Positions 15,260 to 51,238 of a stretch of 64,000 bases of DNA are shown here, piece by piece. The position numbers and the translations under genes are program-made. How positions within the stretch are numbered: position 1 is the first letter of the stretch; each line of letters opens with the position of its first letter. The stretch is from Candidatus Aminicenantia bacterium (GTDB lineage: Bacteria > Acidobacteriota > Aminicenantia > UBA2199): positions 32,923 through 96,922 of the forward strand of contig CBDDBX010000015.1 in assembly GCA_965225955.1 (NCBI GenBank), written 5' to 3'. The notes below the pieces were generated by a model. The model was not told the DNA's origin, made no database searches, and saw nothing but the letters and a program-made list of their open reading frames with translations.

Positions 15260-15856
15260 ATGAAGAGTTTTATTGCTGTTTTGTTACTGGTTTTAGCTTT
15301 ATGGTTTTTTGCTTTCAGAGAAGATAGTGTGGAACTGGGACCCGGGGTAAAGGTAAGTGAAGTGCCGGTTCAGGGGCCCATTAAAGGTATAAAAGCTTTT
15401 GCTTTCAGAGGTTACAGAATTATTCCTAAAGCAGGATTTATTGTTAAAGGGAAAGTCCTTAGTCGGGAGAATTACTATTCTGACAGGAATTCAGAAATAT
15501 CACCTCTGGATATTGCTCTTGGATGGGGACGGATGTCTGACGAAAAGGTTCTTGATAAAATTGATATAAGTCAGGGAGGTCGGTGGTATCGCTGGTATAC
15601 TGATAATTTTCCTATTCCCAGACGTGAGATAGAAACCTGTAGTGCCAACATGCATATGATTCCTTCAACTCCCGGAATAGAGAAAGAGCTTCAGCAGATA
15701 AGAAAAGGTGATATTGTAAGAATTACAGGAATGCTTGTTAATGTTGAGGGAAGGAACAATTACAGGTGGAACAGTTCTTTAACCCGTAATGATACTGGAG
15801 ATGGGGCCTGTGAGATTATTTTTGTTACCAGAGTGGATATTCTGGAAACCAGATAG
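15260..15856 (+). CDS. Hypothetical membrane-anchored protein
   Basis: 198-aa ORF with an N-terminal anchor (MKSFIAVLLLVLALWFFAF). The soluble domain has conserved-looking blocks (SPLDIALGWGRMSD, SANMHMIP, NDTGDGACEII). I recognise no family. Confidence 0.5.
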   Translation: MKSFIAVLLLVLALWFFAFREDSVELGPGVKVSEVPVQGPIKGIKAFAFRGYRIIPKAGFIVKGKVLSRENYYSDRNSEISPLDIALGWGRMSDEKVLDKIDISQGGRWYRWYTDNFPIPRREIETCSANMHMIPSTPGIEKELQQIRKGDIVRITGMLVNVEGRNNYRWNSSLTRNDTGDGACEIIFVTRVDILETR

Positions 15857-15909: not shown

Positions 15910-15938
15910 TTGAAACTTGTGTGCGGGACTGGTATACT
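15910..15938 (+). promoter_or_regulatory. Candidate sigma-70 promoter of the graspetide operon
   Basis: TTGAAA (15910-15915), a 17-nt spacer, then TATACT (15933-15938), about 100 nt upstream of the first ATP-grasp gene. Confidence 0.4.
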
Positions 15939-16041: not shown

Positions 16042-17016
16042 ATGTGCAGGAAAATACTGTGTATTACTCACAGTGAGGATTATTATGTTGTTGACAGAGT
16101 TATGGGCGCTCTTGAGAAAGAGGGACTGGAACCTGTAAGAGTCGATTCAGACGGTTTCCCGGAATCAATTAAATTAAATACTGCTTTTATCAGTGGTAAA
16201 GGTAATTCCACTATTACAGTTGAAGGGCAGAATATTGAAGTTGCTGATATTGGTGGTGTATGGCTCAGGAAACTTAGAATAGGTAAGCCGGCTGAAGATC
16301 TGGACCATAGATACAGAGCAAGCTGTATGAGAGAGACAGATGCAAGCCTCAGAGGCTGGATGAGTAGCCTGTATCACCTGCCCTGGATGGATCTGCCTGA
16401 AATTTCTGTCAGAGGGGAAAATAAGATGTTGCAGTTAAGGGAAGCTGTTTCTGCAGGATTTGATATACCAGATACAATTACAGGTAATGAACCATCTGCA
16501 GTAAGAGATTTTTTTAACAGATGTGAAGGTAGAGTTGTTACCAAAATGCTCACTGCAGTTAGTGCGAGTATGGATGGATCAACACCTTTTATGTACACCA
16601 GCAGAGTTGAAGAGAAAGATCTTGAAGATCTGGACAGTCTTAAATACTGTCCAATGATTTTTCAGGAACTGGTGGAGAAAGAGTGTGAGTTAAGGGTTAT
16701 CTATGTAGATGGTGAAATTTTTACTGGTGCAATAGATGCCTCAAATAGTCTGAGAGGGAAAGTTGACTGGAGACTTGCAGCAACAGGAGAGTGTTGCTGG
16801 GTACATAGTGACCTGCCGAATGGAGTTAAAGATACTCTTCGTAAATTTATGAAGAGTATGGGACTGAGATATGGGGCTGTAGATATAATCAGAACTCCTG
16901 ATGAGAAGTATATTTTTCTTGAAGTTAATCCCGGAGGGGAGTGGGGAATGCTTGAAAAGTTTCTGGAATATCCTGTTTCAGTGGCAATTGCAAAATCGTT
17001 TAAAAAGAGGTTATAG
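16042..17016 (+). CDS. Graspetide ATP-grasp ligase, MdnB/MvdC-like (putative omega-amide ligase)
   Basis: 324 aa. Blocks ILCITHSEDYYVVDRV, VWLRK, ENKMLQLREA, YCPMIFQE, ELRVIYVDGEIFTGAI, VDWR, YGAVDIIRTPDEKYIFLEVNPGGEWGMLE match my recollection of the MdnB/MvdC type. Confidence 0.85.
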   Translation: MCRKILCITHSEDYYVVDRVMGALEKEGLEPVRVDSDGFPESIKLNTAFISGKGNSTITVEGQNIEVADIGGVWLRKLRIGKPAEDLDHRYRASCMRETDASLRGWMSSLYHLPWMDLPEISVRGENKMLQLREAVSAGFDIPDTITGNEPSAVRDFFNRCEGRVVTKMLTAVSASMDGSTPFMYTSRVEEKDLEDLDSLKYCPMIFQELVEKECELRVIYVDGEIFTGAIDASNSLRGKVDWRLAATGECCWVHSDLPNGVKDTLRKFMKSMGLRYGAVDIIRTPDEKYIFLEVNPGGEWGMLEKFLEYPVSVAIAKSFKKRL

Positions 17017-17019
17017 ATA

Positions 17020-18000
17020 ATGAGAGTATTAGTTGTTACCCATAGTAATGATAACGAATCTGTGGAGATGGTGGGGAAAGAGATTGAAGCACTTGGAGGA
17101 GAGGTTGTCCGGTTTAATAGTGATGAGTTTCCTGTTTCTGTAAAACTTGAAGCCGGGTATTCAGATTCTGGTACAGATCTCTATATGGAAAACAGTGAAG
17201 GTCGATGGAACCTTTCGGAAATAGATGCTGTATGGTACAGAAGATTAAGTCTGGGTGGGAAACTACCTGGGGACCTTGGTGAAGATATTATAAGACCATC
17301 AGTAGAGGAATCCAGAAGGTTGTTCGTAGGACTTCTGGAGTCTATGGATGTCTTTACAATGAATAGTTACCACTCAGTTAGATATTCAGAAAATAAACTG
17401 CTTCAGCTGAAAGTTGCGGGAGAGCTGGGACTTAATGTACCGGATACAGTAGTTACAAACAGTCCGGGAGCAGTAAGGGAACTGTCTGGCAGATGTAAAG
17501 ATGGGATTATTACCAAAATGCAGTCCTCTTTTGCTCTTTACAGAAATGGTGAGGAGCATGTTGTCTTTACAAATAAAGTTTCTGCTGATGATATGGAGCA
17601 TCTGAATGACCTGAAATACTGCCCAATGATATTTCAGGAGAAGCTGGATAATATACAGGAGTTAAGAGTAACTATTGTGGGGGATCAGATTTTTGCAGCT
17701 TCCATTGATCCTGCTCTGAGGAGAGGTGCTGAGGTGGACTGGCGCAAAAAAGGGGCAGAGCTGATAAATGACTGGAAGCCTTATGAATTGCCGGAAGATA
17801 TTAAAGTTAAACTCCTGAAATTTATGGACTATTTTAAGATCAATTACGGGGCTATGGATATAATTGTAACACCTGAAGGTAAGTATGTTTTTCTGGAGAA
17901 CAATCCCGGAGGGGAGTTCTTCTGGCTGGACAGGTGCGCAGGACTGCCGATTGCCGGGGCAATAGCTTCAGTTCTTATGGATAGAAGTTACAGACGTTGA
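17020..18000 (+). CDS. Graspetide ATP-grasp ligase, MdnC/MvdD-like (putative omega-ester ligase)
   Basis: 326 aa. Blocks VLVVTHSNDNES, AVWYRR, ENKLLQLKVA, IITKM, YCPMIFQE, ELRVTIVGDQIFAASI, DWRKKG, YGAMDIIVTPEGKYVFLENNPGGEFFWL closely follow the MdnC pattern as I recall it. Confidence 0.88.
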   Translation: MRVLVVTHSNDNESVEMVGKEIEALGGEVVRFNSDEFPVSVKLEAGYSDSGTDLYMENSEGRWNLSEIDAVWYRRLSLGGKLPGDLGEDIIRPSVEESRRLFVGLLESMDVFTMNSYHSVRYSENKLLQLKVAGELGLNVPDTVVTNSPGAVRELSGRCKDGIITKMQSSFALYRNGEEHVVFTNKVSADDMEHLNDLKYCPMIFQEKLDNIQELRVTIVGDQIFAASIDPALRRGAEVDWRKKGAELINDWKPYELPEDIKVKLLKFMDYFKINYGAMDIIVTPEGKYVFLENNPGGEFFWLDRCAGLPIAGAIASVLMDRSYRR

Positions 18001-18026
18001 GAATTTAAAAAATATAGGAGGGAAAA

Positions 18027-18275
18027 ATGGAAAACAAAAAAAGACCATTTTTTGCACGTTTTCTTGAGAATCAGGTTTCAGAGGATAAGATGGAAGGAAC
18101 CAGTGGTGGTGCAACCAGCAAATATCCTTCAGACACTGATGAGAGTATTCTTGGTGATATGCTTAAAGAGAAGCAGGATATTGTTGTAAAGGCGACTAAC
18201 AAGTATCCATCTGATAGTGATGAAACAGTTACCATGAAATATCCATCAGACCATGATGAACATATGGAAATGTAG
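18027..18275 (+). CDS. Microviridin-class graspetide precursor with three core motifs
   Basis: 82 aa with a strong SD (AGGAGGG at 18016-18022). Leader motif PFFARFL at 18045-18065. Cores TSKYPSDTDE (18114-18143), TNKYPSDSDE (18195-18224) and TMKYPSDHDE (18231-18260). Confidence 0.9.
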   Translation: MENKKRPFFARFLENQVSEDKMEGTSGGATSKYPSDTDESILGDMLKEKQDIVVKATNKYPSDSDETVTMKYPSDHDEHMEM

Positions 18276-18304: not shown

Positions 18305-18334
18305 GCAGCTTCTGTCACTCTGATCGGAAGCTGC
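18305..18334 (+). terminator. Intrinsic terminator after the graspetide precursor gene
   Basis: GCAGCTTC / GAAGCTGC 8-bp stem lies 30 nt after the stop, followed by TTTCTCC...ATTTTTTTT. Confidence 0.65.
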
Positions 18335-18493: not shown

Positions 18494-19117
18494 ATGAGTA
18501 GCGATGTAAATGACAACAACTACCAGGTAGAGCTTGTTAAGAGGGCATGTAAAGGAGATAGTGGAGCCTTTCATGAGATTGTTGGTCTCTACAGGAAAAA
18601 AGTTTACTTCATTGCCTATGATATCTGTGGTGACAGACATGAGGCGGAAGATATTGCACAGGAGGTATTTATTAAAGTGTTCAGATTCATAGATAAGTTC
18701 AGATTTGATGCGAAGTTCAGTTCATGGATACATCAGATTGCAGTAAATACCTCTCTTGATGTCGTAAGAAAACAGAAAAACCGAAGCGATTATATAGATG
18801 ATACAGAACTTGAGAAGCGTGATTCAGATTCAGCTATAGGGAGCGGGGAGATAAAATCCCCGGAAAAAGCCACTATTGAAGAGGTGTTGCACAACAGAGT
18901 CAGAGGGGTTCTTGGGGAGCTTTCCCGACAGGAACATTCAGCTTTTGTGATGAGGTACTATAACGGACTGAAACACCAGGAAATAGCTGAAGTAATGTCT
19001 CTTTCTGTTAATACGGTGAAAACAATGCTTTTCAGAGGTAAGAAGAAGTTACAGAAGAAGCTGGCACCTCTGACAGAGGAGTATAAGTTCTGTAAACAGG
19101 AGATGTTTAATGATTAG
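18494..19117 (+). CDS. ECF-type RNA polymerase sigma-70 family factor
   Basis: 207 aa. Region 2 (EDIAQEVFIKVFRFIDKFRFDAKFSSWIHQIAVNTSLD) and region 4 HTH (YNGLKHQEIAEVMSLSVNTVKTMLFRGKKKL). Confidence 0.9.
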   Translation: MSSDVNDNNYQVELVKRACKGDSGAFHEIVGLYRKKVYFIAYDICGDRHEAEDIAQEVFIKVFRFIDKFRFDAKFSSWIHQIAVNTSLDVVRKQKNRSDYIDDTELEKRDSDSAIGSGEIKSPEKATIEEVLHNRVRGVLGELSRQEHSAFVMRYYNGLKHQEIAEVMSLSVNTVKTMLFRGKKKLQKKLAPLTEEYKFCKQEMFND

Positions 19118-19919
19118 TTGCAGGGATTGTGAGATGCTGTTTGATGAGTATTCAGCAGAAGAGCTTTCTGATAGTGAGATGGCTTCTGTGAGCAAACATC
19201 TTGAGAGTTGCCCAAATTGCAGCAGAAACTTTAGTGAGCAGGAAGTTATTACAAAACCCCATAAAAGAGTGGAACCTTCTGAGGATTTCTGGGAAGGCTT
19301 CACTGACAGGCTTCACTCCAGAATGGTTGAAGAGGGGGTTGTTGAGGAATCCGGAACAACTACTGAGAAGAAGAGAAAATCTTTTGAGATTTTTACTCTT
19401 TCATGGTTGAAGCAGAGTATTGCAGCAGCAGCCGTTCTGGTAATAGGGATATTTATAGGAAGTATATTCTTTTCTCAAAGTGGAGAGCTGGGAGAGGATT
19501 CACGAAACAGTGGACTAATGATTGCTTCAGATGATAAATCCGAGGGGGCACTTCTGACAAGAGCTTCACATTTTATCAACCGCTCCAGAGTTATTCTGCT
19601 TGCTATAGATAATTTTGACCCTGAAACAGAAGAGGCGGGTGTTATGGATTTTGCTTATCAGAAGAGTGTAACCAGTGATCTTGTTAAAGAGGCAGCACTT
19701 CTTAAAGAGGGGTTGGGGGAATCCAGACAGAGAAGACTTAAAGAACTTATCAGTGATCTGGAAGTTATTCTTCTTCAACTGGCAAATTACGATAAAGGTA
19801 TGGAAGTAGAGACAATTAAGATGGTAAAGGATAACCGCTATATAAACGGTGTGCTCTACCGTATACGAGTTAATGATCTTCGAAGAGAAACAAATAAAAG
19901 ACGGGTTGAAAGTTATTAA
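19110..19919 (+). CDS. Anti-sigma factor (zf-HC2 type, single TM)
   Basis: Overlaps the sigma-factor gene by 8 nt. N-terminal CRDCE...H-x3-C-x2-C (KHLESCPNC). Central TM AAAAVLVIGIFIGSIFF. Confidence 0.75.
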   Translation: MISCRDCEMLFDEYSAEELSDSEMASVSKHLESCPNCSRNFSEQEVITKPHKRVEPSEDFWEGFTDRLHSRMVEEGVVEESGTTTEKKRKSFEIFTLSWLKQSIAAAAVLVIGIFIGSIFFSQSGELGEDSRNSGLMIASDDKSEGALLTRASHFINRSRVILLAIDNFDPETEEAGVMDFAYQKSVTSDLVKEAALLKEGLGESRQRRLKELISDLEVILLQLANYDKGMEVETIKMVKDNRYINGVLYRIRVNDLRRETNKRRVESY

Positions 19920-19941
19920 TAACCCGAAATGGGAGGAAAGT

Positions 19942-21252
19942 ATGAAAGTTAATAGAAGAGCCGGAGTAATGGCTGCGTTAATGTTTGTGTGTATGCTGAT
20001 ACTGCCTTCTCTGTCTGTGATGGCTGAGAATGAGTACAAGAAGAAAGATATTAAAGCCTTCAGAAATGCCTATAATCTTATACTTAAAGAGAACTGGAAA
20101 AAGGCTTCAGAAGAGTTCAACAGCTTTATAAAGCTTTATCCGGAGAGTCACTATGTGGATGATGCCCTTTTCTGGCACTGTTACTGCAGGGAAAAAACCG
20201 GGCAGGACCTGGAGAAGGTTTTCAGTTGTTATACAGAGTTTATTAAGAAGTATAAAAGAAGCAAGTGGAGTGATGATGCAAGATCCAACATTATCAGAAT
20301 CGGTCATATTCTGGCAAAAAAAGGTAAGAAAGAGTACATAACAGTTATCAAAGCTTATGAAGAGAGCCAGAATGCAGATGTGAAACTTGCAGCTCTTCAG
20401 GCACTTGAAGATATCGGTGATGAGAGATCACTGAAAACAATAATTGATATGTACGACTCATCTGCTGACCCTAAATTAAAAAGAAGGGTTATAAATATTC
20501 TGGAAGATTTCAATAATCCTGTGGCTTTCAGTAAAATAAAGCAGATTGCTCTGACAGAAAAGAATGAGAGGCTCAGAAGAAGAGCGATTGATACTCTTTC
20601 AGACATAAATCGTCCGGGAACAGTAAAAGTGCTTATGCAGATAGTAAAGAGTAATGCGACTTCTGTTATCAAAAGAGCAGCTCTTGAAGCAATGGAAGAT
20701 GTTAGAAGTGAAGGTTCAAAACACTCTAAAGAGGCTCTTGATGCTCTTGTTGAAATTGTAAAAACTTCTAAAGATCTAAAACTGAGAAAGAGTGCAATCA
20801 ATTCCATAGAGGATTTCGAAACTCCTGAAGCGGAAAATGTACTTTACGATATGGCTCTCAATATTGAAGATGCTGATATTGCCTGTAAAGCTGTGGAAGC
20901 TCTTAGTGACAGACTTAAGAAAAGTAATCCTGAAAAGCTTCTGGAAGTTTATCGTAAAAACAGAAGAGTGAAGGTAAGAAAAGAGGTAATTGATAATATT
21001 GAAGATCTTAAAAGTTATAAAGGAATTCCTCTTCTTATGAAGCTGGCAGAAACAGAAACAAATCCTGAACTGCTATGCGATATCATTAACGGTCTTGAGG
21101 ATTATAATAGAGACGAACCTGTAGCAATGCTTCTGAAGTTTGCAATGGAATCAAAGAGTATGAAGGTAAGAAAAGCTGCAATAGATGCTCTTGAAGAGAT
21201 AGGTTCTGCCAAAGCAAGAGAAGCTCTGAGTAAAATTCTTGGAGCAAACTGA
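19942..21252 (+). CDS. Secreted TPR plus HEAT-repeat protein
   Basis: I moved the start to 19942 (MKVNRRAGVMAALMFVCMLILPSLSVMA; SD GGGAGG). There are many HEAT/PBS-lyase-like repeats, e.g. VKLAALQALEDIGDERSL and LRRRAIDTLSDINRPGTV. Confidence 0.8.
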   Translation: MKVNRRAGVMAALMFVCMLILPSLSVMAENEYKKKDIKAFRNAYNLILKENWKKASEEFNSFIKLYPESHYVDDALFWHCYCREKTGQDLEKVFSCYTEFIKKYKRSKWSDDARSNIIRIGHILAKKGKKEYITVIKAYEESQNADVKLAALQALEDIGDERSLKTIIDMYDSSADPKLKRRVINILEDFNNPVAFSKIKQIALTEKNERLRRRAIDTLSDINRPGTVKVLMQIVKSNATSVIKRAALEAMEDVRSEGSKHSKEALDALVEIVKTSKDLKLRKSAINSIEDFETPEAENVLYDMALNIEDADIACKAVEALSDRLKKSNPEKLLEVYRKNRRVKVRKEVIDNIEDLKSYKGIPLLMKLAETETNPELLCDIINGLEDYNRDEPVAMLLKFAMESKSMKVRKAAIDALEEIGSAKAREALSKILGAN

Positions 21253-21340
21253 GAAAAAAGATAATCGTTATCTGAAAAGATATTCCAGCGGATTGATTCA
21301 AATCCGCTGAACCATTTAATAAACATACTGGAGAAAGATA

Positions 21341-22531
21341 GTGGAACTTTATAAAAAAATATTAGTAGTGCATCTTATTATTCTGTTGTTCTGTGTATCC
21401 GCTGAAGCCGGGGCAGATAAGCTGATAAACAGAGCCGGTGATTCAGGTACTCCTGCATCAAAATGGCAGAAAGCTTTTAAAGACGGAATGGGAAGTAAGA
21501 GGAGTTTCTGGATAGCATGGAGCGTTGACCGGATGATGGGAGAAAATACATGGTTTCTGGGTAGTGACAGGTTCTGTGGCTGCATAACTACCTGTAATTT
21601 CGACTCAACATTTGTGAATATGAAAGGAGAAGCTCTTGGAAAGATTGTTTATGGTAGTAGTTATAAAGTAAAAACTCCTGTGAGAAAAAGTAACAGAGAA
21701 CAGATCAGGGAAGCAGCAGAAGAAGCTATAGCCAATATTGACGGGAAAAGAAAAGGGCGGAAGATAAAGAGAGTATCAAAAGAGGTGGCAGTACTTTTCC
21801 TTTTTGAACCAGAGAAAGGCAGATACCCGGTGAGAATAGTTCATAGTAATATGTCCATGCCTTTTAATAGTGGCGGAAACCGTATCTACTGGCTTGGTAA
21901 AACAGATGAGAAGATAAGTTTTACCTTTATGAAAAATCTTTTTCTCAAAGAGAAGAATGAGAAGGTGGCTAAACGCTATATTTCAGCTCTGGGTTATCAC
22001 TCAAACAGTAGTGATGTTATTCAGTTCATGAGTTCTGTTCTCAGAGGTAATTACAGTGATAATATACGGAAACGGACAGCAGGGGAGCTGGGTGATCAGA
22101 ATAGTCCTGTTGCAGCAGAAGCTCTGCTGAAGACTGCAATGCAGGATTTCTCCCTTGATGTCAGAAGAGCTGCTGTAAACGGACTTGAAGATATTGAGCT
22201 TCCTGTAGCAGTTAATGCTCTTATTAAGATTGCTGATAGTGCCAATAATATCTATATAAGGCTGAAAGCGATTAATGTACTTGGTGATGTTGGAACACCT
22301 GAAGCTGCCCGGGCTCTTAAGAGAATTGCATGGGAGGATAAGACTTTGAGAATACAGTGTAAAGCGGTTGATGCTTTTGAAGACCTTGATAATAACAGAG
22401 GGGTTCCTTACCTGGCAGAAATAGCAAAATCCCATCCTGTTTCAAAAGTCAGAAAGAGAGCTCTGGATACTCTGAGTGATATAGATGATCCAAGAGCTTT
22501 TGAAACAATCAGAAGTATTGTGAAACAGTAG
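21341..22531 (+). CDS. Secreted protein with C-terminal HEAT repeats
   Basis: GTG start and a signal-like N-terminus (LVVHLIILLFCVSAEAGA). C-terminal repeats: VRRAAVNGLEDIELPVAV, IRLKAINVLGDVGTPEAA, VRKRALDTLSDIDDPRAF. Confidence 0.75.
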   Translation: MELYKKILVVHLIILLFCVSAEAGADKLINRAGDSGTPASKWQKAFKDGMGSKRSFWIAWSVDRMMGENTWFLGSDRFCGCITTCNFDSTFVNMKGEALGKIVYGSSYKVKTPVRKSNREQIREAAEEAIANIDGKRKGRKIKRVSKEVAVLFLFEPEKGRYPVRIVHSNMSMPFNSGGNRIYWLGKTDEKISFTFMKNLFLKEKNEKVAKRYISALGYHSNSSDVIQFMSSVLRGNYSDNIRKRTAGELGDQNSPVAAEALLKTAMQDFSLDVRRAAVNGLEDIELPVAVNALIKIADSANNIYIRLKAINVLGDVGTPEAARALKRIAWEDKTLRIQCKAVDAFEDLDNNRGVPYLAEIAKSHPVSKVRKRALDTLSDIDDPRAFETIRSIVKQ

Positions 22532-22781
22532 GATAAGACAGATAGAGGCAGTCTGTGCCGGCTGCCTCAAAACTCATATAATCTTTCTGAACCGCGAATG
22601 CACGCGAATAAAAAACAAAAAATGTTGAAAAAAACATAAAGATTTTTGTTGCAGTTGTTTAAATGTACCCTAAGTTAAGGTGGTTTGGAGATAACCCCGT
22701 TACCCTGTGTTATATTTTCAGAATCATGCTTCTCTTACCGTTTTTTGGTGCAGAAAAAGTTTAAACTATCGTAATTTATAT

Positions 22782-22797
22782 TGTCCGGGTGCGGACA
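22782..22797. promoter_or_regulatory. TGT-N10-ACA palindrome, candidate enhancer-binding-protein site
   Basis: TGTCCGGGTGCGGACA (6-bp arms) lies about 60 nt upstream of the sigma-54 -24 element. Confidence 0.35.
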
Positions 22798-22858
22798 TCA
22801 ACGTCGCATGGTGAACGGCAGATTTTATCCGGGGCCTCTAAAAATCAATGTTTTGGAT

Positions 22859-22874
22859 TGGCACGCCTATTGCA
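22859..22874 (+). promoter_or_regulatory. Sigma-54 (-24/-12) promoter
   Basis: TGGCACGCCTATTGCA matches TGGCACG-N4-TTGCW at every specified position. It ends 36 nt upstream of the ATG at 22911. Confidence 0.65.
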
Positions 22875-22910
22875 TACTCTCTGATATGATAAAATAACCG
22901 GAGAAGTAAT

Positions 22911-25292
22911 ATGATAAGCAGCTACTTTAAAACAGGTTTTCGTAATCTTAAGAGAGAGAGACTCTCATCTGTTATCAACATAATCGGCTTAACTGCAGGT
23001 ATTTTTACCACAATGCTGATTGCTACATATATCTATGCTGAGTTAAACTACGACTCATTTCATAAGAAGTCTGACCGTATAGTCAGGATCATTACCATAT
23101 CAGAGAATCCTGAAAACCGGGGTGCAAGAACAGCCATGAGTATGGTTCCTCTTGTTCATGAATATGGGAAGATTGATGGAGTTGAAACGCCAACCAGAAT
23201 ATTTAAGGGATGGCGGGGAATGTCCGCAAGGTACAAAGGGAAGGTCTTTGAGAACAATCCAATTCTGTATACAGATAATAATTTTTTCAGGCTATTTGAT
23301 TTTAAACTTCTTGACGGGAGTTTCAAAGATGCCCTTAAAGACCCCTATACAGTAGTTATTAACAGATCTTCAGCAATTAAGTTTTTTGGAACTATTAATG
23401 CCGCAGGTGAAAATATTCAGCTGGAGATGATGGAAGAAAGAGATAAATACTCATCTTTCAGAATTGCGGCAGTTATTGAGGATACTCCTTACAACTCCCA
23501 TTTCAGTTACAGTGTTTTTATGCCTTTTGCCAATCTTAAATGGCTACAAAAGCAGAAGAGTAATGAGGTATATAACTATTTTGCAATAAAAGAGGGATAT
23601 AGAAGAGATGTTGTGCTGGCTCAGGTTAAAGAGGTGTGTGACAGGATTTATAAACCAAGAGAGAAGTATGGATATCACGGAGTTGTGAGGTTTCAGAACC
23701 TCAAAGATATAAGATTATATTCATCTGATATGGGTTATGATTTCAAAGTACAGGGTAATATTCTCAGAGTGTATGTTTTCTCTGCTTTTCCTTTTATTCT
23801 TCTTTTTATTGCAGGGCTTAATTTTATAAATATTCTCAATGCAAGATTACAGAATCGTTTCAAAGAGATGGGGCTGCGAAAGGTTCTGGGAGCAGGAAAA
23901 AGAGCGATTCTGTATCAGCTACTGGGGGAATCTCTTGCCACGGTTTTTATAACAGGAATAGTAAGTATTGTGCTGTATTTCAGTTTTCTGAACGGGTTTG
24001 GTGAACTTGTTGAGATGGAACTCGCTAAATTTGAAGAGAACTGGATGCTGATCTCTCTTATTACCCTTGCAGTATCTATGCTTATTGGAGTAATTGCCTC
24101 ACTACTTCCAGGGGCACTTATGGCCCGGACCAGAACCCTTACGCTATTTGAAGGTCCCGGGATAGGAAGAAAAAAGAACTATCTCGTTAATTTTACAGTG
24201 CTGGTACAGTTTGCTGTTGTAGTTGTGATGATAATATCGACTCTTGTTATCTATAACCAGCTGAATTTTATGAAGGATATAGATCCGGGCTTTAATAGAG
24301 AGCAGGTGCTGAATTTTCAGGTAGCTGATGCCGCCACCCGTGGAGTTCTGAAAAACAGATTAATGAATCACCCGGAGTTTATCAGTATTGCAGGTTCTGA
24401 GAGTATCCCGGGGCAGAGAAGAAGCGGGCAGTTACTGACAAATTTCGGAGGCAGAACTCTGAATGACAGATATAATATGTATGAGAACAGAGTTGAGTCG
24501 GGATATATAAAAACATACGGACTGGAGCTGATTGCCGGCAGGGATTTTATTGAAAACAGTGAAAGTGATCGTAGTAGTATTATTGTCAATGAAGAAGTAT
24601 TGAAGAAAGCCGGGGTAGATGCAGAAGAGGCTATTGGTAAAAAGTTGAACTATTTTAACAGGGATTTCACTGTAATAGGGGTTGTGAAAAATTATCACTT
24701 CTTCTCACTAAAGAGGAAAATTGATCCTCTTGTACTTAGTAACTACAGAACAGGATTCCATACAATATCTGTGAGATTTAAAGCAGGTAAGGTAAAAGAA
24801 GTGCTTGACCTTATTAAAAAAGAGATGAAACAGCTGGAACCTGAAACTGCTGTTAGTCCGGTTTTTGTGGATGAGATTTTCAGGAAAATGTATCGTAAAG
24901 AGGATATATTTAATCAGATAGTTTTTTATGGAGCTGTTATTGTGATACTACTTGCAATTGGAGGGCTCTTTGCTCTTACATATTTTGCTGTTGTTAAGAA
25001 GACTAAAGAGATAGGCATAAGAAAAGTACTGGGGGCTACAACATCTGTAATCAATTTTCAATTAATAAGAGAGTTCATAAAATGGATAGGCTTTGCAAAC
25101 TTCATTGCTCTGCCTGCAGGGTATCTGATAATGAGAGGATGGCTGAACAATTTTGCATATAAAATTGATCTGAATCCCATCTATTTCATCTCTTCTACAC
25201 TTATCAGTATTCTTCTGGCTCTTGGAACGATTATCTATCTTACTACCAGGGCTGCAAGCAGACAACCTGCAGAAAACATAAGATACGAATAG
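22911..25292 (+). CDS. FtsX/MacB-type ABC transporter permease (two FtsX modules)
   Basis: 793 aa. N-terminal TM, large periplasmic domains and two 4-TM FtsX modules with GLRKVLGAGK / GIRKVLGATT motifs. There is no adjacent ATPase gene. Confidence 0.88.
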   Translation: MISSYFKTGFRNLKRERLSSVINIIGLTAGIFTTMLIATYIYAELNYDSFHKKSDRIVRIITISENPENRGARTAMSMVPLVHEYGKIDGVETPTRIFKGWRGMSARYKGKVFENNPILYTDNNFFRLFDFKLLDGSFKDALKDPYTVVINRSSAIKFFGTINAAGENIQLEMMEERDKYSSFRIAAVIEDTPYNSHFSYSVFMPFANLKWLQKQKSNEVYNYFAIKEGYRRDVVLAQVKEVCDRIYKPREKYGYHGVVRFQNLKDIRLYSSDMGYDFKVQGNILRVYVFSAFPFILLFIAGLNFINILNARLQNRFKEMGLRKVLGAGKRAILYQLLGESLATVFITGIVSIVLYFSFLNGFGELVEMELAKFEENWMLISLITLAVSMLIGVIASLLPGALMARTRTLTLFEGPGIGRKKNYLVNFTVLVQFAVVVVMIISTLVIYNQLNFMKDIDPGFNREQVLNFQVADAATRGVLKNRLMNHPEFISIAGSESIPGQRRSGQLLTNFGGRTLNDRYNMYENRVESGYIKTYGLELIAGRDFIENSESDRSSIIVNEEVLKKAGVDAEEAIGKKLNYFNRDFTVIGVVKNYHFFSLKRKIDPLVLSNYRTGFHTISVRFKAGKVKEVLDLIKKEMKQLEPETAVSPVFVDEIFRKMYRKEDIFNQIVFYGAVIVILLAIGGLFALTYFAVVKKTKEIGIRKVLGATTSVINFQLIREFIKWIGFANFIALPAGYLIMRGWLNNFAYKIDLNPIYFISSTLISILLALGTIIYLTTRAASRQPAENIRYE

Positions 25293-25325
25293 TTTGTTAA
25301 GCTACTTATAATTATCGTTATAAGT

Positions 25326-25351
25326 GCGTAAAGCCTTCACAGGCTTTACGC
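25326..25351. terminator. Hairpin between convergent genes (permease / phosphoesterase)
   Basis: GCGTAAAGCC-TTCACA-GGCTTTACGC, a 10-bp perfect stem. Neither side has a clear U-tract. Confidence 0.5.
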
Positions 25352-25371
25352 ATTAGCTATATGATGTTTCT

Positions 25372-26574
25372 TTAAAAATCTTTTATAAAGTTATCAAGAT
25401 TGGCGTCATATTTCTGTCTCTCAGGATTTGGTTTTATTTCACCCTTTACTATAGAACAGCCGTTACAGAATCTTATAAGTCCGTCTTTTTTCATCTTTCC
25501 AAGACATTTTTCAACAATCAGAACCGGAGTTTTGCGCTTCATGTCTATATCAACTGTAAAATAGTTTGCTCTTCTGGGGCGTTTGGTTTTATCTATTCCA
25601 AGAGCAGCCCAGAACAGCTCTTTAACTGGTTTGTAAGGAGCCGGATATGGAGTATATTTCTGCTTTGCCGGAGCACCACCACCACCTGCAACAATGACTT
25701 TAACTGCATTGTAGTTGTAGATTTCGGTTGTATGGTTATGTCCGTTGAAAACATACATGTCCAGCTGAGCATACTCTTTTTTCAGGTTACTTAAAACAAC
25801 TGCCGGATCGTTGACTGAATCCAGAGGTGGATGTTTGTAGTAAGAGAAACTTGGCTTATGATACTGTACAAATACATTGCCTCTCTTCTTCTCTTTTGCA
25901 AAGGAACTGATGATTTTTACCATTGCTTTTTTAACCTGAGGAAAATTCGCGACAGTACAGGTCCACTCTTTGTCCCATTTATAAGCATTTTCTTTAGAGT
26001 AGTTCTTACCATATTTTCCTGTACAGAGATTAATAAAAAGGTTATCTCCAATCATAAACCAGTAGTTGTGCAGAACCTTACCATCTCTGGTTTTTAAGTG
26101 GGGGAAGGCGTTACCGAAATTCCTGAGACCTTCGCCCTCTTTATTCACATCCCACAGTTCATGGTTCCCCATTATAGGATAGATTTTTTTCATTGTGTAT
26201 GGAGTCAGAACAGATTCTGCTTCTTTCCAGTAGCTGTTATCTCCTCCTCTCCAGATCATGTCACCTGTAAAGAGAGTAAAACTGGCATCTTTCTTCTTCA
26301 GAGTAGCTGTTACAGCGTTAAACACTCTGTTTCTGATATTTTTATATGCCTTATTATCAGGTTGCATCAGATCTTCTGTTGAGCTTGTCCGGGTGTCCCC
26401 AAAAAGAATGAAGGAAAATTTCCCTGAATCTGTAACAACCGGAGCTTCTATCCGGGTTATTACTGTGTCTGAATCTTCAGAACCGCTCCATGCTGTAAAA
26501 CTTAAGCTTAAAATAAGTAGTAAAATTAAAAGGTAGTTTCTTCTCATTACTTCCTCCTGTTTTGTATTAACCAA
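25372..26574 (-). CDS. Secreted calcineurin-like metallophosphoesterase
   Basis: Signal peptide. Motifs FILFGDTR, FTGDMIWRGG, GNHE, GHNHT. Confidence 0.85.
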   Translation of the reverse strand: MVNTKQEEVMRRNYLLILLLILSLSFTAWSGSEDSDTVITRIEAPVVTDSGKFSFILFGDTRTSSTEDLMQPDNKAYKNIRNRVFNAVTATLKKKDASFTLFTGDMIWRGGDNSYWKEAESVLTPYTMKKIYPIMGNHELWDVNKEGEGLRNFGNAFPHLKTRDGKVLHNYWFMIGDNLFINLCTGKYGKNYSKENAYKWDKEWTCTVANFPQVKKAMVKIISSFAKEKKRGNVFVQYHKPSFSYYKHPPLDSVNDPAVVLSNLKKEYAQLDMYVFNGHNHTTEIYNYNAVKVIVAGGGGAPAKQKYTPYPAPYKPVKELFWAALGIDKTKRPRRANYFTVDIDMKRKTPVLIVEKCLGKMKKDGLIRFCNGCSIVKGEIKPNPERQKYDANLDNFIKDF

Positions 26575-26663
26575 GTATTGTTCAGAGGTGACAATAATTC
26601 AAGTATGAAGTTTATTTTTTACCTGTATATATCTATAATCATAATATCAGAGGAGGTAAGCTG

Positions 26664-27029
26664 ATGAGTTATGAGTGGCTTGAGGAATACTGTTGTGCTA
26701 AAGCCGGAGTAGTTAAAGATTATAAAGTTGAATGGGAAGTTTTCAGATATATGGTCGGGGGGAAAATGTTTGTTATGCAGGGGCATAATAAGGAAAAGCG
26801 TCCTATTATATCTCTCAAATGCGAACCCCTTCTGGCAAAATCACTGAGAGATGAACATGAGGATATTATACCGGGATATTATCTAAATAAAGAGCACTGG
26901 AACTCTATCTATGAAGATGGTGATGTTTCTGATGAACTTATGAAAAGAATGGTGGATATGTCTTATGAACTTGTTTTTAAGACTTTGACATTGAAGATGA
27001 GAAAGGAGATTGAAGGTGATCAGAACTGA
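26664..27029 (+). CDS. MmcQ/YjbR-family protein
   Basis: 121 aa. The pattern ...YMVGGKMFVM...LKCEP...IIPGYYLNKEHWNSI is typical of the YjbR fold family. Confidence 0.8.
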   Translation: MSYEWLEEYCCAKAGVVKDYKVEWEVFRYMVGGKMFVMQGHNKEKRPIISLKCEPLLAKSLRDEHEDIIPGYYLNKEHWNSIYEDGDVSDELMKRMVDMSYELVFKTLTLKMRKEIEGDQN

Positions 27030-27516
27030 AAGACTTGTACTTAAGCCGTTGAGAACTGAGGATGCTGAAGCACTGTTTTTTTACAGATCAGATAAAATTG
27101 TTAACAGATATCAGAGCTGGATACCTGAAACTGTTTCTGATGCAGAGGAGTTTATAGGTAAAATTGCTCAAAAACCTGATACTCCCGGTACATGGTACCA
27201 GTTAGGGCTTTTTGAAAAACAGACGGATAAACTGGTAGGGGATGTGGGAATACATTTCCTGAATGAAAGATCCGGCGCTGTTGAACTGGGGGTAACTCTT
27301 GCAGCAGAATGTCAGGGTGATGGTTATGCTTCTGAAGCAATGAGTGCTGTAATAGATTATCTGATTGACGAGCTGGGTAAAGTGAGGCTTTATGCCTATA
27401 TCCTCAAAGATAATATCAATTCAACAAGGTTATTCCGTAAACTTGGTTTTAAGCAGATACCTGATGAAGATGGTTATACTGTATGGCTAATGGAAGCAGA
27501 GGGTAGAAAGGGGTGA
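27016..27516 (+). CDS. GNAT-family N-acetyltransferase (RimJ/RimL-like)
   Basis: IRTERLVLKPLRTEDAEALF N-terminus and a GNAT core (GVTLAAECQGDGYASEAM). I prefer the GTG at 27016 because AAAGGAG lies 7 nt upstream. The ORF track starts at a TTG at 27010. Confidence 0.85.
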   Translation: MIRTERLVLKPLRTEDAEALFFYRSDKIVNRYQSWIPETVSDAEEFIGKIAQKPDTPGTWYQLGLFEKQTDKLVGDVGIHFLNERSGAVELGVTLAAECQGDGYASEAMSAVIDYLIDELGKVRLYAYILKDNINSTRLFRKLGFKQIPDEDGYTVWLMEAEGRKG

Positions 27517-27616
27517 TTTCTGAAATCTGAAGATATCTGATGATAGCTTTCTTTTTCTGACTATTGTATTTAGTAGGCAAATTCAATTTATAAATATGCA
27601 GTTGTCAGGAGGCATT

Positions 27617-28561
27617 ATGGTTTTAAGTAAGAGACTTATATCATTAGCTATTATTCTTATTTTCAGTACAGGTTTCTGTCAGGTTTATGCTCAGGAAGGA
27701 AAAGCTTCGATAAAAAAGAGAGTTGCGGTTTTTCAGTTTGAGGATAAAACCAGAAACAAGCATATGTGGTGGACAGGTGAAACTGTTGGCAGAGGTATGG
27801 CTGATATGCTTATTACAGCTCTTGTTAAGTCCGGTAAGTACAGAGTTCTTGAACGGAACTCTCTTGATAAGATAATGAAGGAGCAGGATCTGGGACTGAG
27901 AGGAGCAGTGACTCAGCAGAGTGCTGCGAAGGCAGGTAAACTACTTGGGGTTCAATTGGCAATTATAGGAGCTGTAACAGAGTACGGTGTAAAGAGAAGT
28001 AGTGTTGGTGGAAGCATAAATACCAATAAACTTTTTGTTAAATCTCTGGGTGTAAGGAAATCAAAGGTTACTGTTGGTATCGATCTTAGATTTGTTAATA
28101 CTACAACTGGTGAGATTATTGCTTCAGAAACTGTAAGAAAAGAGAAGAAAAAAGCGGGACTTAAAGTAGGAACTACTGAGTTCAGATTCAGAAGTCAGAA
28201 CGATTTTGATAAATCTCTCATTGGTAAGGTTACCAGAGAAGCTATAAAAGAGATGCTGAAAAAAATTGACCGGCAGATGGTTAAGATGCCATGGGAAGCA
28301 AAAATCATCAGAGTTACAGGGAATACTGTGTATATAAACTCAGGAGCAGAGGCGGGGGTCAATGTCGGGGATGTTCTTGCAGTTTACTCAAAAGGAGAAG
28401 AGCTTATAGATCCTGATACAGGATTGTCTCTTGGAGCTGAAGAAGAGAGAATTGGTACAATAAGCGTTGTTACCAACAACCTGGGGAACGGGAAAGCTTC
28501 AAAAGCCAGAATTGTAAGTGGTTCAGGTATGAAGAAAGGGGATCTTATCAGAATTAAATAG
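27617..28561 (+). CDS. CsgG/HfaB-family lipoprotein (curli-type secretion channel family)
   Basis: KRVAVFQFEDKT..., GRGMADMLITALVKSGKYRVLERNSLDKIMKEQDL, LGVQLAIIGAVTEYG. I moved the start to the ATG at 27617, behind AGGAGG at 27607-27612. Confidence 0.8.
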   Translation: MVLSKRLISLAIILIFSTGFCQVYAQEGKASIKKRVAVFQFEDKTRNKHMWWTGETVGRGMADMLITALVKSGKYRVLERNSLDKIMKEQDLGLRGAVTQQSAAKAGKLLGVQLAIIGAVTEYGVKRSSVGGSINTNKLFVKSLGVRKSKVTVGIDLRFVNTTTGEIIASETVRKEKKKAGLKVGTTEFRFRSQNDFDKSLIGKVTREAIKEMLKKIDRQMVKMPWEAKIIRVTGNTVYINSGAEAGVNVGDVLAVYSKGEELIDPDTGLSLGAEEERIGTISVVTNNLGNGKASKARIVSGSGMKKGDLIRIK

Positions 28562-30479: not shown

Positions 30480-30887
30480 CTACTGTATACCGGCATCATT
30501 AAGAGGGACAGTATATTTCTTATCGGAACTCATGATATGTTTGGTAACCCAGGTCATCAGAAAGTTCATTGTTTTAATTGATACTGTTGATTTACCTTCA
30601 TCAAACTGCTTCTTATAGTCAACAACTATAGCAGTAAAATCTTCATGCTCTTTTTTATGAGCCGTAAAATCTCTGTAGTCAGCTCTTGTCATAAATCGCT
30701 CTTCAAGGGCAAAGTGTTTCTGGGTATAAGTTATAAGACTTGAGAATATCTTATCAAGATCGTCTCTGCTTTTACCTGATTTCATTGAGTCGTGCATTTC
30801 ATTGATTGTGTTGATCAGATGTTCATGTTGTTTATCAATTTCTGAAATATTAACTGAATATCTGGAATTCCATTTTAAAAGTGCCAT
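30480..30887 (-). CDS. Bacteriohemerythrin
   Basis: 135 aa. W-x-x-x-YSV-x-x-x-EIDKQHEHL N-terminus and His/Glu/Asp iron ligand positions (H..E, HF..EE, H..H...D). Confidence 0.9.
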   Translation of the reverse strand: MALLKWNSRYSVNISEIDKQHEHLINTINEMHDSMKSGKSRDDLDKIFSSLITYTQKHFALEERFMTRADYRDFTAHKKEHEDFTAIVVDYKKQFDEGKSTVSIKTMNFLMTWVTKHIMSSDKKYTVPLNDAGIQ

Positions 30888-39016: not shown

Positions 39017-39412
39017 TTATTTGCTGAAATCTTTTTTGTACTTCTGATCCATTTCCAGAATATGACTTCTAAGCCAGTTAACAAGAAATCTGAGCATCTT
39101 AACTGAAATACCCTCTTTATTGTTCAGGTATTCCCGTAAAAAATTCTGCAGAGTTTCTTCAAATTTCTTGTGTTCACACTGCTGCTCTTTCAATAATTCA
39201 GGTGCATGATTTCTGATATAACGTTCTTCTGTATCGAAATGTTTTCTTGAATACTCTCTCAGACGTTTAAGATGCTCATGAAATTGCGTATCGATATTAC
39301 TCTCTGTGAGATTCTGGATAACATCATTGGTTATATCAAAAAGCTCTCTATGCTGTTTATCAAGCATAACAACATTTACTGAGTATTTCTCTGTCCATTT
39401 AATCTTTTTCAT
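39017..39412 (-). CDS. Bacteriohemerythrin
   Basis: 131 aa. KWTEKYSVNVVMLDKQHRELF plus hemerythrin His/Glu ligand pattern. Confidence 0.9.
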   Translation of the reverse strand: MKKIKWTEKYSVNVVMLDKQHRELFDITNDVIQNLTESNIDTQFHEHLKRLREYSRKHFDTEERYIRNHAPELLKEQQCEHKKFEETLQNFLREYLNNKEGISVKMLRFLVNWLRSHILEMDQKYKKDFSK

Positions 39413-40011: not shown

Positions 40012-40338
40012 ATGAAACTACTTACCCGTGCTGAAGAGCTTATATTGCTGGCAATATGGAAACTGGGAGAAGATGCCTATTGTGTGCCTGTTAGAAAACT
40101 TATTTCTGAAATTACAGAAGAGAACTGGTCTCTTGGAACAATCTATATGCCTCTTGAAAGACTTGAAAAGAGAGGGTTTGTAAAATCTGCCCTTTCAGAT
40201 TCTACTCCAAAAAGAGGAGGAAGGCATAAAAGAATTTACACTCTTCTTCCTGAAGGGGTAGAAGCTCTAAAAAAGGTGAGAGAAGTGGAGATGAAAATGT
40301 GGTCCGCTGTATCTGATATGGTAGAGGAGACCAGTTAA
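40012..40338 (+). CDS. PadR-family transcriptional regulator
   Basis: 108 aa. Winged-helix pattern LILLAIWKLGEDAYCVPVRKLISE...GTIYMPLERLEKRGFV. Confidence 0.88.
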   Translation: MKLLTRAEELILLAIWKLGEDAYCVPVRKLISEITEENWSLGTIYMPLERLEKRGFVKSALSDSTPKRGGRHKRIYTLLPEGVEALKKVREVEMKMWSAVSDMVEETS

Positions 40339-45819: not shown

Positions 45820-46269
45820 CTATATTGAATTAGTAAGCTGAAGTTTTCTATTACTGAAAGAAGCATCTGTTTTATGAAGATTTACTGCTTTTGGAATCTT
45901 CTTATCAACGTATAGAATATGTTCGTATATCCATCCCAGAAGAAAGCCCAGTAGTTTGAGATGTACATCGTTACCTTCATTATGGTACTGATCGTATAAT
46001 TCATTAACGGTGTTCATAAAGCGTTTGTGATCAAATTGCTGTTCTTCTAAAAGCTGTGCAGCATTTTCTCTTATATAGTCTTCTTCAAATTTGAAGTGGC
46101 GCTCTGAATACTCTTTCAGTAATCTGAATATCTTAAGTATTTCATCTTCAGAACTGCCTTTTTTTACTGCGTCAACCAGCTGATTGGTAAACTGTATAAT
46201 GTTTTTGTGCTGTTTATCTATTGCTTCAATATTAACCGAGAAACGCTCTGTCCACTTTATCTTTTCCAT
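45820..46269 (-). CDS. Bacteriohemerythrin
   Basis: 149 aa. KWTERFSVNIEAIDKQHKNII plus hemerythrin ligand pattern. Confidence 0.88.
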   Translation of the reverse strand: MEKIKWTERFSVNIEAIDKQHKNIIQFTNQLVDAVKKGSSEDEILKIFRLLKEYSERHFKFEEDYIRENAAQLLEEQQFDHKRFMNTVNELYDQYHNEGNDVHLKLLGFLLGWIYEHILYVDKKIPKAVNLHKTDASFSNRKLQLTNSI

Positions 46270-50022: not shown

Positions 50023-50278
50023 TTTTCCTCCGATCAACTCCTGGTCGGGGGATTTTGTCACCTTTTAACTGAAGCCTTATTACAACGCTATTTATACTCT
50101 GCTATTATCTACGATACCTCAACAGAATATTGGAAGTTAGTCAGGGATATAAATACTTTCTGATTTATTTGGTATCACTTTACGGAGTATCTGTCCTTTT
50201 TGTAAAACAGATTTACTAATTCTCGTCTGGCAACATAGTTGCTAACATCAGGCGAACGGTTTGCAAAGGAGAGTGCTT

Positions 50279-51238
50279 ATGAAAAGTAAGGGCAAAAAGA
50301 TACTGATTATAATGACTCTAACATCTCTGATGTTGTCAGGGCTTGAAGCAAAGGTAAGTAAAAAGGCAGAAATTCTTAAAGGGGTTGCGGAGTATTGTGA
50401 AAGGTTAAACAAGGAGATTTTTCATTTCTTCTGTTATGAGAAGATAGAGGAATCTGTTGAGCAGGAGTTGAAATATCCAAACAGGAACAGGGGACTTAAG
50501 AATTTTCTTGATGGTAATCCCCAGAGGCAGAAAGACTCTCAATACGAAGCAATAAATCAGCAGAGGAATCAGAGAATAAGAAGAAACTACGCCTCAAGAA
50601 GAAAGGTAACCAAAAATATCTATCTCCATGACTACCAGATAATAAAAGAGAACTGGAGAGTCAGAGAGAGACGTAAACCTCTTAAAGTTGATGAGAAGAT
50701 CAGGAAGATAACCGGTCGTACTGTTATCTATTCATATAAAGCTGCTCTTACGCCGGTTTTTCTGTTTTCAAAAGAGAATCAGAAGCTCTACAACTATAAA
50801 ATCGGAAAAAAGAAGCGTCTTATGGGTAGAAAAACTGTAGAGGTGATTGTAAGCAGAAAATCTGATGATACTATGCTTGTTAAGGCCTGGCTTGATATCA
50901 GAGACTTCTCTCTTCTTAAGTTCAACGTTATGCCGGAAGCTATTAAAGGGTATAATGAAATTGTACATCTTAATAGTAAAAAAATGGATAATATCAGTGT
51001 AAAGGATGTTCACTATTTCGGGCATCTCCGTAATGGTCTCAGGTATCCAACAAAAACCGAAATTTATATCTCTTATGACAGAGAGCCCCAAAGGGTTCTG
51101 AACACCAGCAGAAGCCGAGTGCTTCACGGTGCAAGAGTTTATACCAAACTACAGACTCTTATCTATTATAAAGACTATCAGTTCTTTAATGCAGGAGCAG
51201 AAAATCCGGTTTTTCATAATCTGGAGGATATAAAATGA
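50279..51238 (+). CDS. Hypothetical secreted protein, first gene of the VWA-like operon
   Basis: I prefer the ATG at 50279 behind AAAGGAGAG. Signal-like N-terminus. Overlaps the next gene by 4 nt (ATGA). Confidence 0.6.
   Translation: MKSKGKKILIIMTLTSLMLSGLEAKVSKKAEILKGVAEYCERLNKEIFHFFCYEKIEESVEQELKYPNRNRGLKNFLDGNPQRQKDSQYEAINQQRNQRIRRNYASRRKVTKNIYLHDYQIIKENWRVRERRKPLKVDEKIRKITGRTVIYSYKAALTPVFLFSKENQKLYNYKIGKKKRLMGRKTVEVIVSRKSDDTMLVKAWLDIRDFSLLKFNVMPEAIKGYNEIVHLNSKKMDNISVKDVHYFGHLRNGLRYPTKTEIYISYDREPQRVLNTSRSRVLHGARVYTKLQTLIYYKDYQFFNAGAENPVFHNLEDIK

Follow-up and report, generated by a model that had tools for sequence, protein, structure and literature searches.

Results

A ligase-ligase-precursor cassette

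Two ATP-grasp ligase genes, which end 26 nt upstream of a small precursor gene, make up with it a compact cassette of about 2.3 kb, without accessory genes, in the window (the whole 64-kb stretch of DNA analysed here). The features of the cassette and its borders are as follows.

15910..15938, + strand: candidate sigma-70-like promoter, TTGAAA-17-TATACT with TG, 5' of the first ligase gene (consensus scan only)
16042..17016, + strand: MvdC/MdnB-type ATP-grasp ligase, 324 aa, the predicted lactam (Lys to Glu amide) former
17020..18000, + strand: MvdD/MdnC-type ATP-grasp ligase, 326 aa, the predicted former of two lactones (Thr to Asp, Ser to Asp)
18016..18021, + strand: Shine-Dalgarno sequence AGGAGG, 5 nt 5' of the ATG, read off the sequence
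18027..18275, + strand: precursor gene of the class II microviridin/marinostatin family (assigned from sequence), 82 aa plus stop
18045..18065, + strand: leader recognition motif PFFARFL (aa 7-13), exact match
18105..18110, + strand: double glycine G27-G28 (SGG|A), predicted leader cleavage site
18114..18143, + strand: core 1, TSKYPSDTDE (aa 30-39), P1 = Ser
18144..18194, + strand: lineage-specific linker of 17 aa (aa 40-56), SILGDMLKEKQDIVVKA
18195..18224, + strand: core 2, TNKYPSDSDE (aa 57-66), P1 = Asn
18225..18230, + strand: spacer Thr-Val, 2 aa (aa 67-68), which would give P4/P3 of core 3
18231..18260, + strand: core 3, TMKYPSDHDE (aa 69-78), P1 = Met
18261-18272, + strand: tail HMEM after core 3
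18305..18334, + strand: stem-loop with U-rich stretches 3' of the precursor gene, a likely intrinsic terminator of the operon

The ORF at 18027-18275 translates as MENKKRPFFARFLENQVSEDKMEGTSGGATSKYPSDTDESILGDMLKEKQDIVVKATNKYPSDSDETVTMKYPSDHDEHMEM. It matches the Pfam model PF12559 (Inhibitor_I10; E 1.3e-11, 44.9 bits against a cut-off of 21) and, in three stretches, the NCBIfam microviridin/marinostatin RiPP model NF033738, titled 'microviridin/marinostatin family tricyclic proteinase inhibitor' (E 1.8e-17, 63.8 bits against a cut-off of 26). These matches and the two adjacent ligases bear out the initial annotation, which had read the gene as a multi-core precursor of microviridin type. The PFFARFL motif of the leader is described as essential for ligase activation (PMC13039773); in an alignment of 20 homologs P7, F8, F9, R11 and L13 do not vary at all and A10 hardly does. 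G27-G28, two residues 5' of core 1, is likewise nearly invariant (at least 90%) in the homolog alignment, and the leader would be cleaved at this site.

The three cores lie exactly where the initial annotation had placed them on the translation, separated by 17 residues and by 2 residues (TV). Each contains all six crosslinking residues, and all three fit the published definition of a full core, TX1KYPSDX2(D/E)(E/D) (PMC5934393); the core motif TxKxPSDx(D/E)(D/E) is also given in PMC12848669. The pattern T.K.PSD is absent elsewhere in the six-frame translation of the 64-kb window. The codons that had been quoted for the three KYPSD segments are also exact, as is the claim drawn from them that the cores are conserved at the level of the peptide: the 30-nt core units are only 22-24/30 identical in DNA, and there has therefore been no recent DNA duplication. 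An exact look-up of the precursor sequence returned no record.

At the borders of the cassette, the stem-loop at 18305-18334 folds with a dG of -20.6 kcal/mol (z -4.49), and none of 200 shuffled sequences folds as well; a consensus terminator scan did not call it. The operon may start at the promoter candidate at 15910-15938, a weak candidate that is not enriched relative to shuffled sequences.

The two ligases are paralogous and are told apart by their best matches. The product of 16042-17016 has as its best NCBIfam match TIGR04185 (MvdC; 396.5 bits, equivalog cut-off 425), also matches the MvdD pre-ATP-grasp domain of Pfam (PF21068), and is matched best in the PDB, over its full length, by 5ig8 (5.5e-85) and by AMdnB (7m4s; 1.3e-81). 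For the product of 17020-18000 the corresponding matches are TIGR04184 (MvdD; 411 bits, cut-off 475) and, again at full length, 5ig9 (8.4e-83) and CdnC (7mgv; 1.7e-76). The two genes thus form a pair of reciprocal best hits (MvdC/5ig8/AMdnB versus MvdD/5ig9/CdnC), and because both score under the NCBIfam equivalog cut-offs we regard both as divergent members of their types. Enzymes of the MvdD/MdnC type form two lactones and those of the MvdC/MdnB type the lactam (PMC7823629). The occurrence of Lys at core position 3 in all three cores together with a lactam-type and a lactone-type ligase is the combination by which tricyclic (microviridin) systems are recognised. A genome scan that used the MvdD-like ligase alone yielded no confirmed relative.

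Surroundings of the cassette

The window has a GC content of 38%, Shine-Dalgarno sites are in use, and it encodes Gram-negative envelope systems, including RND efflux, TonB receptors and a type II secretion/type IV pilus-like operon. For its SerRS, no protein in a collection of 5.8 billion sequences exceeds 68% identity, with the best matches (64-68%) in Aminicenantes/Acidobacteriota, Deferrimicrobium, Kapabacteria and Omnitrophota MAGs. The host belongs to an uncultured lineage.

Neither a peptidase (including Peptidase_C39) nor an ABC exporter was found among the 51 ORFs scanned in the 64-kb window, and no peptidase or C39-ABC exporter was found beside five related clusters (L001, L083, L084 and L086/087). 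Other microviridin accessory genes were not recognised in the window. Its sole GNAT gene (Acetyltransf_3, 27010-27516) lies 9 kb downstream of the precursor gene and is part of a conserved backbone that stays colinear in a related contig while the position of the cassette differs. Directly 5' of the ligases is an ORF of 198 aa (15260-15856, + strand) with a hydrophobic N-terminus and no Pfam or NCBIfam match. This ORF and the RND efflux genes were considered as parts of the cluster and rejected, as both are absent from the visible flank of the orthologous cassette described below.

Immediately 3' of the precursor gene, at 18494-22531 (+ strand), are genes for an ECF sigma factor, a zf-HC2 anti-sigma factor and two HEAT-repeat proteins. 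Two permeases of 793 and 878 aa (22911-25292 and 40338-42974, + strand) each carry duplicated MacB_PCD and FtsX domains. The former is a possible, if unsupported, candidate for export because its counterpart directly follows the precursor gene in the ortholog. Elsewhere in the window, a gene for a C-5 cytosine DNA methyltransferase (1023-2042, - strand) abuts an unannotatable ORF of 246 aa (283-1023), and this pair (283-2042, - strand) may be a restriction-modification system. Two adjacent ORFs of 325 and 718 aa (50261-53391, + strand) have no Pfam match at E <= 1e-4, and three separate small genes for hemerythrin-domain proteins lie within 16 kb on the - strand (30480-30887, 39017-39412 and 45820-46269).

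An ortholog with three intact cores

The closest precursor (P0025, on contig L083) is 68% identical to that of the window and has the sequence MESKKTPFFARFLENQISTKKMETMNGGATQKFPSDSDEAEVTMKAPSDSDEGNVTMKHPSDSDEYEVM. The ligases of the two cassettes share 61-62% identity, and the flanks in L083 are colinear with 22855-28561 of the window. The flanking genes are 52-75% identical between the two contigs (MacB/FtsX permease, 69%; metallophosphoesterase, 69%; YjbR, 74%; GNAT, 52%; CsgG, 75%). The orthologous precursor retains the leader, the GG site (as NGG|A) and three complete cores with every crosslinking residue, and AAGGAGG is its equivalent of the Shine-Dalgarno sequence. A different codon is used at 19 of the 46 residues that are identical in the two precursors. 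Since the ortholog keeps three intact cores despite this recoding, selection maintains the additional cores, and the ORF in the window is intact, genuine and selectively maintained.

Degenerate or unconserved extra motifs in the homologs, which the initial annotation had named as evidence that would count against a true multi-core precursor, are not what was found: the ortholog has three complete cores, and 155 of 169 family sequences are multi-core. What is conserved between the two precursors is the number of cores and their chemistry, whereas the exact spacing and the first two P1 residues vary. The spacers are 3 and 3 residues in the ortholog (AEV and GNV) versus 17 and 2 in the window, and the 17-aa linker of the window, which corresponds to a 14-aa gap in the alignment of the orthologs, is an insertion specific to its lineage. 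At P1 the ortholog has Q, M and M and the window precursor S, N and M, so that only the Met of core 3 is shared.

The position of the cassette also differs between the two otherwise colinear backbones (16042-18275 in the window and 128-3127 in L083). In L083 it is flanked by the second HEAT-repeat gene on one side and the MacB-like permease on the other (compare 22531-22911 in the window), whereas the cassette of the window precedes the ECF sigma/anti-sigma/HEAT/HEAT block. Repeats flanking the cassette, a possible cause of the moved position, were looked for and none were found.

Spacing, acceptor, tail and P1 residues across the family

Three samples of the family were drawn, all of them enriched in multi-core members, as the query itself contains three cores. 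Sample (a) is a word-indexed search that gave 24 precursors. Sample (b) is a pattern scan built from the precursor alignment, with one genome per species and at least 420 confirmed loci, the top 80 of which come from Nostocales, Bacteroidota, Myxococcota and Acidobacteriota. Sample (c) comes from 1.84 billion cluster representatives searched exhaustively with HMMER, with 184 hits; pooling of these representatives with the precursors of sample (a) gave the 169 sequences analysed, so that samples (a) and (c) overlap in part.

The initial annotation had taken the 2-residue spacing between cores 2 and 3 to be unusual, and the surveys contradict this. A spacer of exactly 2 residues is the modal one throughout: it makes up 22 of 31 spacers in sample (a), mostly as x-Val (DV, NV, TV, SV and others), 47 of 99 in sample (b), where 83 of 99 are of 4 aa or less, and 110 of 268 in sample (c), where 88 sequences have at least one such spacer and Val directly precedes the Thr in 206 cores. 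Multi-core members account for 22 of the 24 precursors of sample (a) and 58 of the 61 that were parsed in sample (b). Even with the enrichment of the samples, the tight-spaced multi-core layout is common. The suggestion that homologs be searched for the same spacing was thus borne out in that 2 residues is the commonest spacer, but the spacing is not kept in the nearest ortholog. One family member, P0027, has a layout like that of the window precursor (core, 10 aa, core, NV, core).

Also among the departures from the classical core that had been listed were Asp as the second ester acceptor and the absence of an aromatic tail. Both features are present in all three cores, but neither is unusual: Asp occupies core position 9 in 318 of the 435 cores of sample (c), as it does in marinostatin, and a WEEY-type aromatic tail occurs in 0 of the 59 homolog sequences read directly. 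What is uncommon in the window precursor is the 17-aa linker, a length matched or approached by only 4 of 268 family spacers, and Ser at P1, found once in 435 cores. A hidden ring site in the linker was considered and is thought unlikely, as no AMdnA-type quasi core, degenerate TxKxPSD or T[KR]PxxD mini-motif is recognisable in it.

P1 is different in every core in 75 of the 155 multi-core members of sample (c). Diversification of P1 within precursors was tested as an explanation and rejected, since identical pairs make up 36% versus 21.6% after shuffling; P1 residues that are alike within one precursor are expected from the duplication history, and there is no sign of selection for P1 diversity inside one precursor. 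P1 does vary with position in multi-core precursors. Leu or Met is found in the last core in 110 of 151 (73%) versus 77 of 151 (51%) in the first core (Fisher p = 1.4e-4), and polar or charged P1 residues are more frequent in upstream cores (P0002-P0170).

Discussion

The precursor as a class II member

Multi-core 'class II' microviridins were defined in 2017 (Ahmed et al. 2017 classification), and one was dissected biochemically in 2018. In this class one leader is followed by a tandem array of at most five cores, which may or may not have GG between them (PMC7823629; PMC13039773), and GG motifs occur in class II/III precursors. The window precursor exceeds the profile cut-offs of the family, carries the PFFARFL leader and has cores of the form TxKxPSDx(D/E)(D/E) with all crosslinking residues; it has one leader and three cores, within the two to five expected for class II, and a double-glycine motif. 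A C39-domain transporter 'often' or 'normally' accompanies class II precursors, a feature that is typical of the class and not strictly defining, and none lies within the 64-kb window. As judged from these sequence features, the gene very probably encodes a class II (multi-core) graspetide precursor of the microviridin/marinostatin family. This is an already described and widespread class, to which the window adds one divergent member.

The best-studied relative for comparison is AMdnA of Anabaena sp. PCC 7120, with its ligases AMdnB and AMdnC (PMC5934393). The two precursors share a single PFFARFL leader, three TxKYPSDx(D/E)(D/E) cores, a longer first and a shorter second linker and a P1 residue that differs from core to core, and both are paired with MdnB-type and MdnC-type ATP-grasp ligases. 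AMdnC lactonises the three AMdnA cores independently and distributively, roughly from N to C, and forms no cross-core esters (PMC5934393). In vitro, however, the most abundant form of AMdnA had five lactones and not six, so that full modification of every core is not guaranteed. The first spacer of AMdnA, as derived from D51/D76/D93, is about 15 residues long and includes a lactonisable 'quasi core' TGKLRDE, and the second is about 7 residues long, in contrast to 17 and 2 in the window. The window cassette also differs in having the precursor gene 3' of the ligases, in lacking a nearby C39-peptidase transporter and in its host, an uncultured non-cyanobacterial lineage with 38% GC.

Class I microviridins (e.g., B and J; TxKYPSDWEE[Y/W]) share with the window precursor the leader motif, the ligase pair, the topology of Thr-Asp, Ser-acid and Lys-Glu linkages predicted here, and a P1 residue between Thr and Lys. 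They differ in that each precursor has a single core, the second ester acceptor is Glu, and there is a Trp as well as an aromatic tail at the C-terminus; their clusters usually carry a GNAT N-acetyltransferase and the ABC protein MdnE.

Marinostatin (FATMRYPSDSDE; marinostatin E is ATMRYPSDSDEDGFN) is the closer likeness for the core itself. It shares the xYPSDSDE core, has Asp at the second ester acceptor and has no aromatic tail. Core 3, TMKYPSDHDE, amounts to marinostatin with a Lys, and both have Met at P1. Marinostatin differs in having Arg where the window cores have Lys, and it is bicyclic, with no lactam, and has a single core; the window precursor has three cores, and a third ring in each is predicted from the Lys residues and the MvdC-type ligase. 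In the F-A-T-M-R-Y-P-S segment of marinostatin P1 is Met4 (PMC9623506), which upholds the initial annotation's identification of the variable residue between Thr and Lys as the protease P1 position. The targets of marinostatin are subtilisin and chymotrypsin. It is a 12-mer, FA plus TMRYPSDSDE, the size of which equals the period of x-Val tandem repeats, and without its two N-terminal residues all activity is lost.

Proposed maturation and the fate of the product

A plausible route from precursor to product can be drawn from these comparisons. The PFFARFL leader helix would dock on and activate both adjacent ligases. In each core the MvdD/MdnC-type enzyme (17020-18000) would form the Thr1-Asp7 lactone and then the Ser6-Asp9 lactone, after which the MvdC/MdnB-type enzyme (16042-17016) would close the Lys3-Glu10 lactam. 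By analogy with AMdnA and AMdnC, the cores would be handled independently and distributively, roughly from N to C, and the outcome would be three tricyclic cages with nine crosslinks. The leader would be cut off at Gly-Gly by a GG-type peptidase encoded elsewhere. Each cage is expected to act as a substrate-mimicking serine-protease inhibitor with its P1 residue (Ser, Asn or Met) between Thr and Lys, and the x-Val spacer may double as a linker and as P4/P3 of the next cage. We put the probability of this explanation taken whole, that is, a class II precursor with nine crosslinks, leader removal and a fused product, at roughly 0.6. The initial annotation had gone further and proposed that one gene could encode three inhibitors with distinct targets. 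Such a reading is plausible because P1 determines specificity in the microviridin/marinostatin family; it is a prediction that is not specifically supported.

A central question is whether the cages stay together once the leader is removed. The initial annotation had raised a fused double cage as one option, and this is plausible. We tentatively propose a multi-headed inhibitor of about 54 residues in which at least cores 2 and 3, and probably the whole set, remain linked, a proposal to which we would give close to an even chance. Several lines of evidence favour a joined product: neither GG nor another recognisable cleavage motif separates the cores, no protease gene lies in the window or beside the five related clusters, and marinostatin needs its two N-terminal residues, which are the equivalent of the spacer in the 12-residue repeat. 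Other multi-core graspetides point the same way. Plesiocin (a group 2 graspetide) and chryseoviridin (from Chryseobacterium) are multi-core protease inhibitors that stay whole as a single product, and plesiocin at full length binds tighter than a fragment. The repeats of plesiocin are independent heads, and it has been engineered to inhibit two proteases at once. Neither is a close match to the window precursor, as plesiocin has other core motifs, another ring topology and a single ligase, and chryseoviridin has extra single-ring TxxxxD units plus one microviridin-like core. In the accessible literature we found no published demonstration of two full cages only 2 residues apart and no structurally characterised class II product with x-Val two-residue spacing.

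An alternative is that the crosslinking is the same and the product is then cut by unlinked house-keeping or GG-type peptidases into three separate inhibitors of about 12-16 residues, in a manner similar to the cyanobactins. The main support for such cutting is the size of marinostatin, since an x-Val spacer plus a 10-residue core gives a 12-residue inhibitor and x-Val repeats have precisely that period. Reviews have proposed that peptidase-transporters free individual class II cores, and AMdnA cores can be separated by GluC in vitro. Moreover, the leader peptidases of class I microviridins are encoded outside the cluster and the N-termini are trimmed progressively, and thus the lack of a nearby protease gene does not show a lack of processing. 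Nevertheless, the absence of a recognisable cleavage motif between the cores, and of a peptidase gene in the window and beside the related clusters, speaks against release of the individual cores, as does the retention of other multi-core graspetides as whole products. The 2-residue spacer is also likely to be a poor protease substrate because the residues on either side of it would be locked up, the N-terminal one by a lactam and the C-terminal one by an ester. On balance we consider cutting into three inhibitors unlikely, although it is the most serious competitor of the joined product.

It could also be that only core 3, with its marinostatin-like Met at P1, is functional, and that cores 1 and 2 are partly modified or inactive and serve as spacers or decoys. 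The preference for Leu or Met in the last core of multi-core precursors fits this idea, as do the conservation of the core 3 Met as the sole P1 shared with the ortholog, the rarity of Ser at P1 in the family and the incomplete modification of the major AMdnA product. However, the crosslinking residues of cores 1 and 2 are all intact in both the window precursor and its ortholog despite about 35% divergence, which argues for selection on cage formation, and residues that are polar or charged (Q, K, R, E, D, H, T and N) are frequent at P1 across the family; we therefore judge a lone active core 3 to be improbable. Nothing was found in favour of a fortuitous open frame or a degraded pseudogene without a product, and such a reading is barely credible given its matches to both family HMMs, its ribosome-binding site, the terminator-like hairpin, its position right after cognate ligases and the synonymous codon changes that separate it from its ortholog.

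If the joined product is correct, the window precursor would give rise to a natural bis- or tris-tricyclic 'multi-cage' microviridin, in which one peptide of about 54 residues could bind two or three different proteases simultaneously. Because the x-Val two-residue spacing is modal in hundreds of uncharacterised precursors, the joined reading would extend to most class II microviridins and would define their real product type. The wider question is whether cages two residues apart are made into multi-headed inhibitors or 12-mers, and whether nine rings can be closed at such density. The residual interest is general to closely spaced class II cores and not particular to the window locus; for this question the three-gene cassette (~2.3 kb) would be a convenient test system. 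It might likewise be developed into a scaffold for protease inhibitors of multiple specificity, comparable to engineered plesiocin.

The surveys also brought to light further variation in how class II precursors are built. Where long spacers occur elsewhere, they are not neutral sequence. In Nostoc (L028, L038, L039 and L055) the long spacers contain degenerate cores, such as TKKCPSDNEH. In Flavobacterium and relatives (L075, L077, L061 and P0046, from Bacteroidota) a T[KR]PxxD mini-motif recurs in the long spacers, and it could form one extra lactone. There are also giant members, including P0102 and P0104 (479 aa each) and P0146 (671 aa), along with P0026, P0028 and P0058 (197-257 aa). In the giant members an N-terminal region of 140-250 residues precedes PFFARFL and is followed by 10-15 cores with Gly/Asp-rich spacers, a number of cores far above the published class II limit of five.
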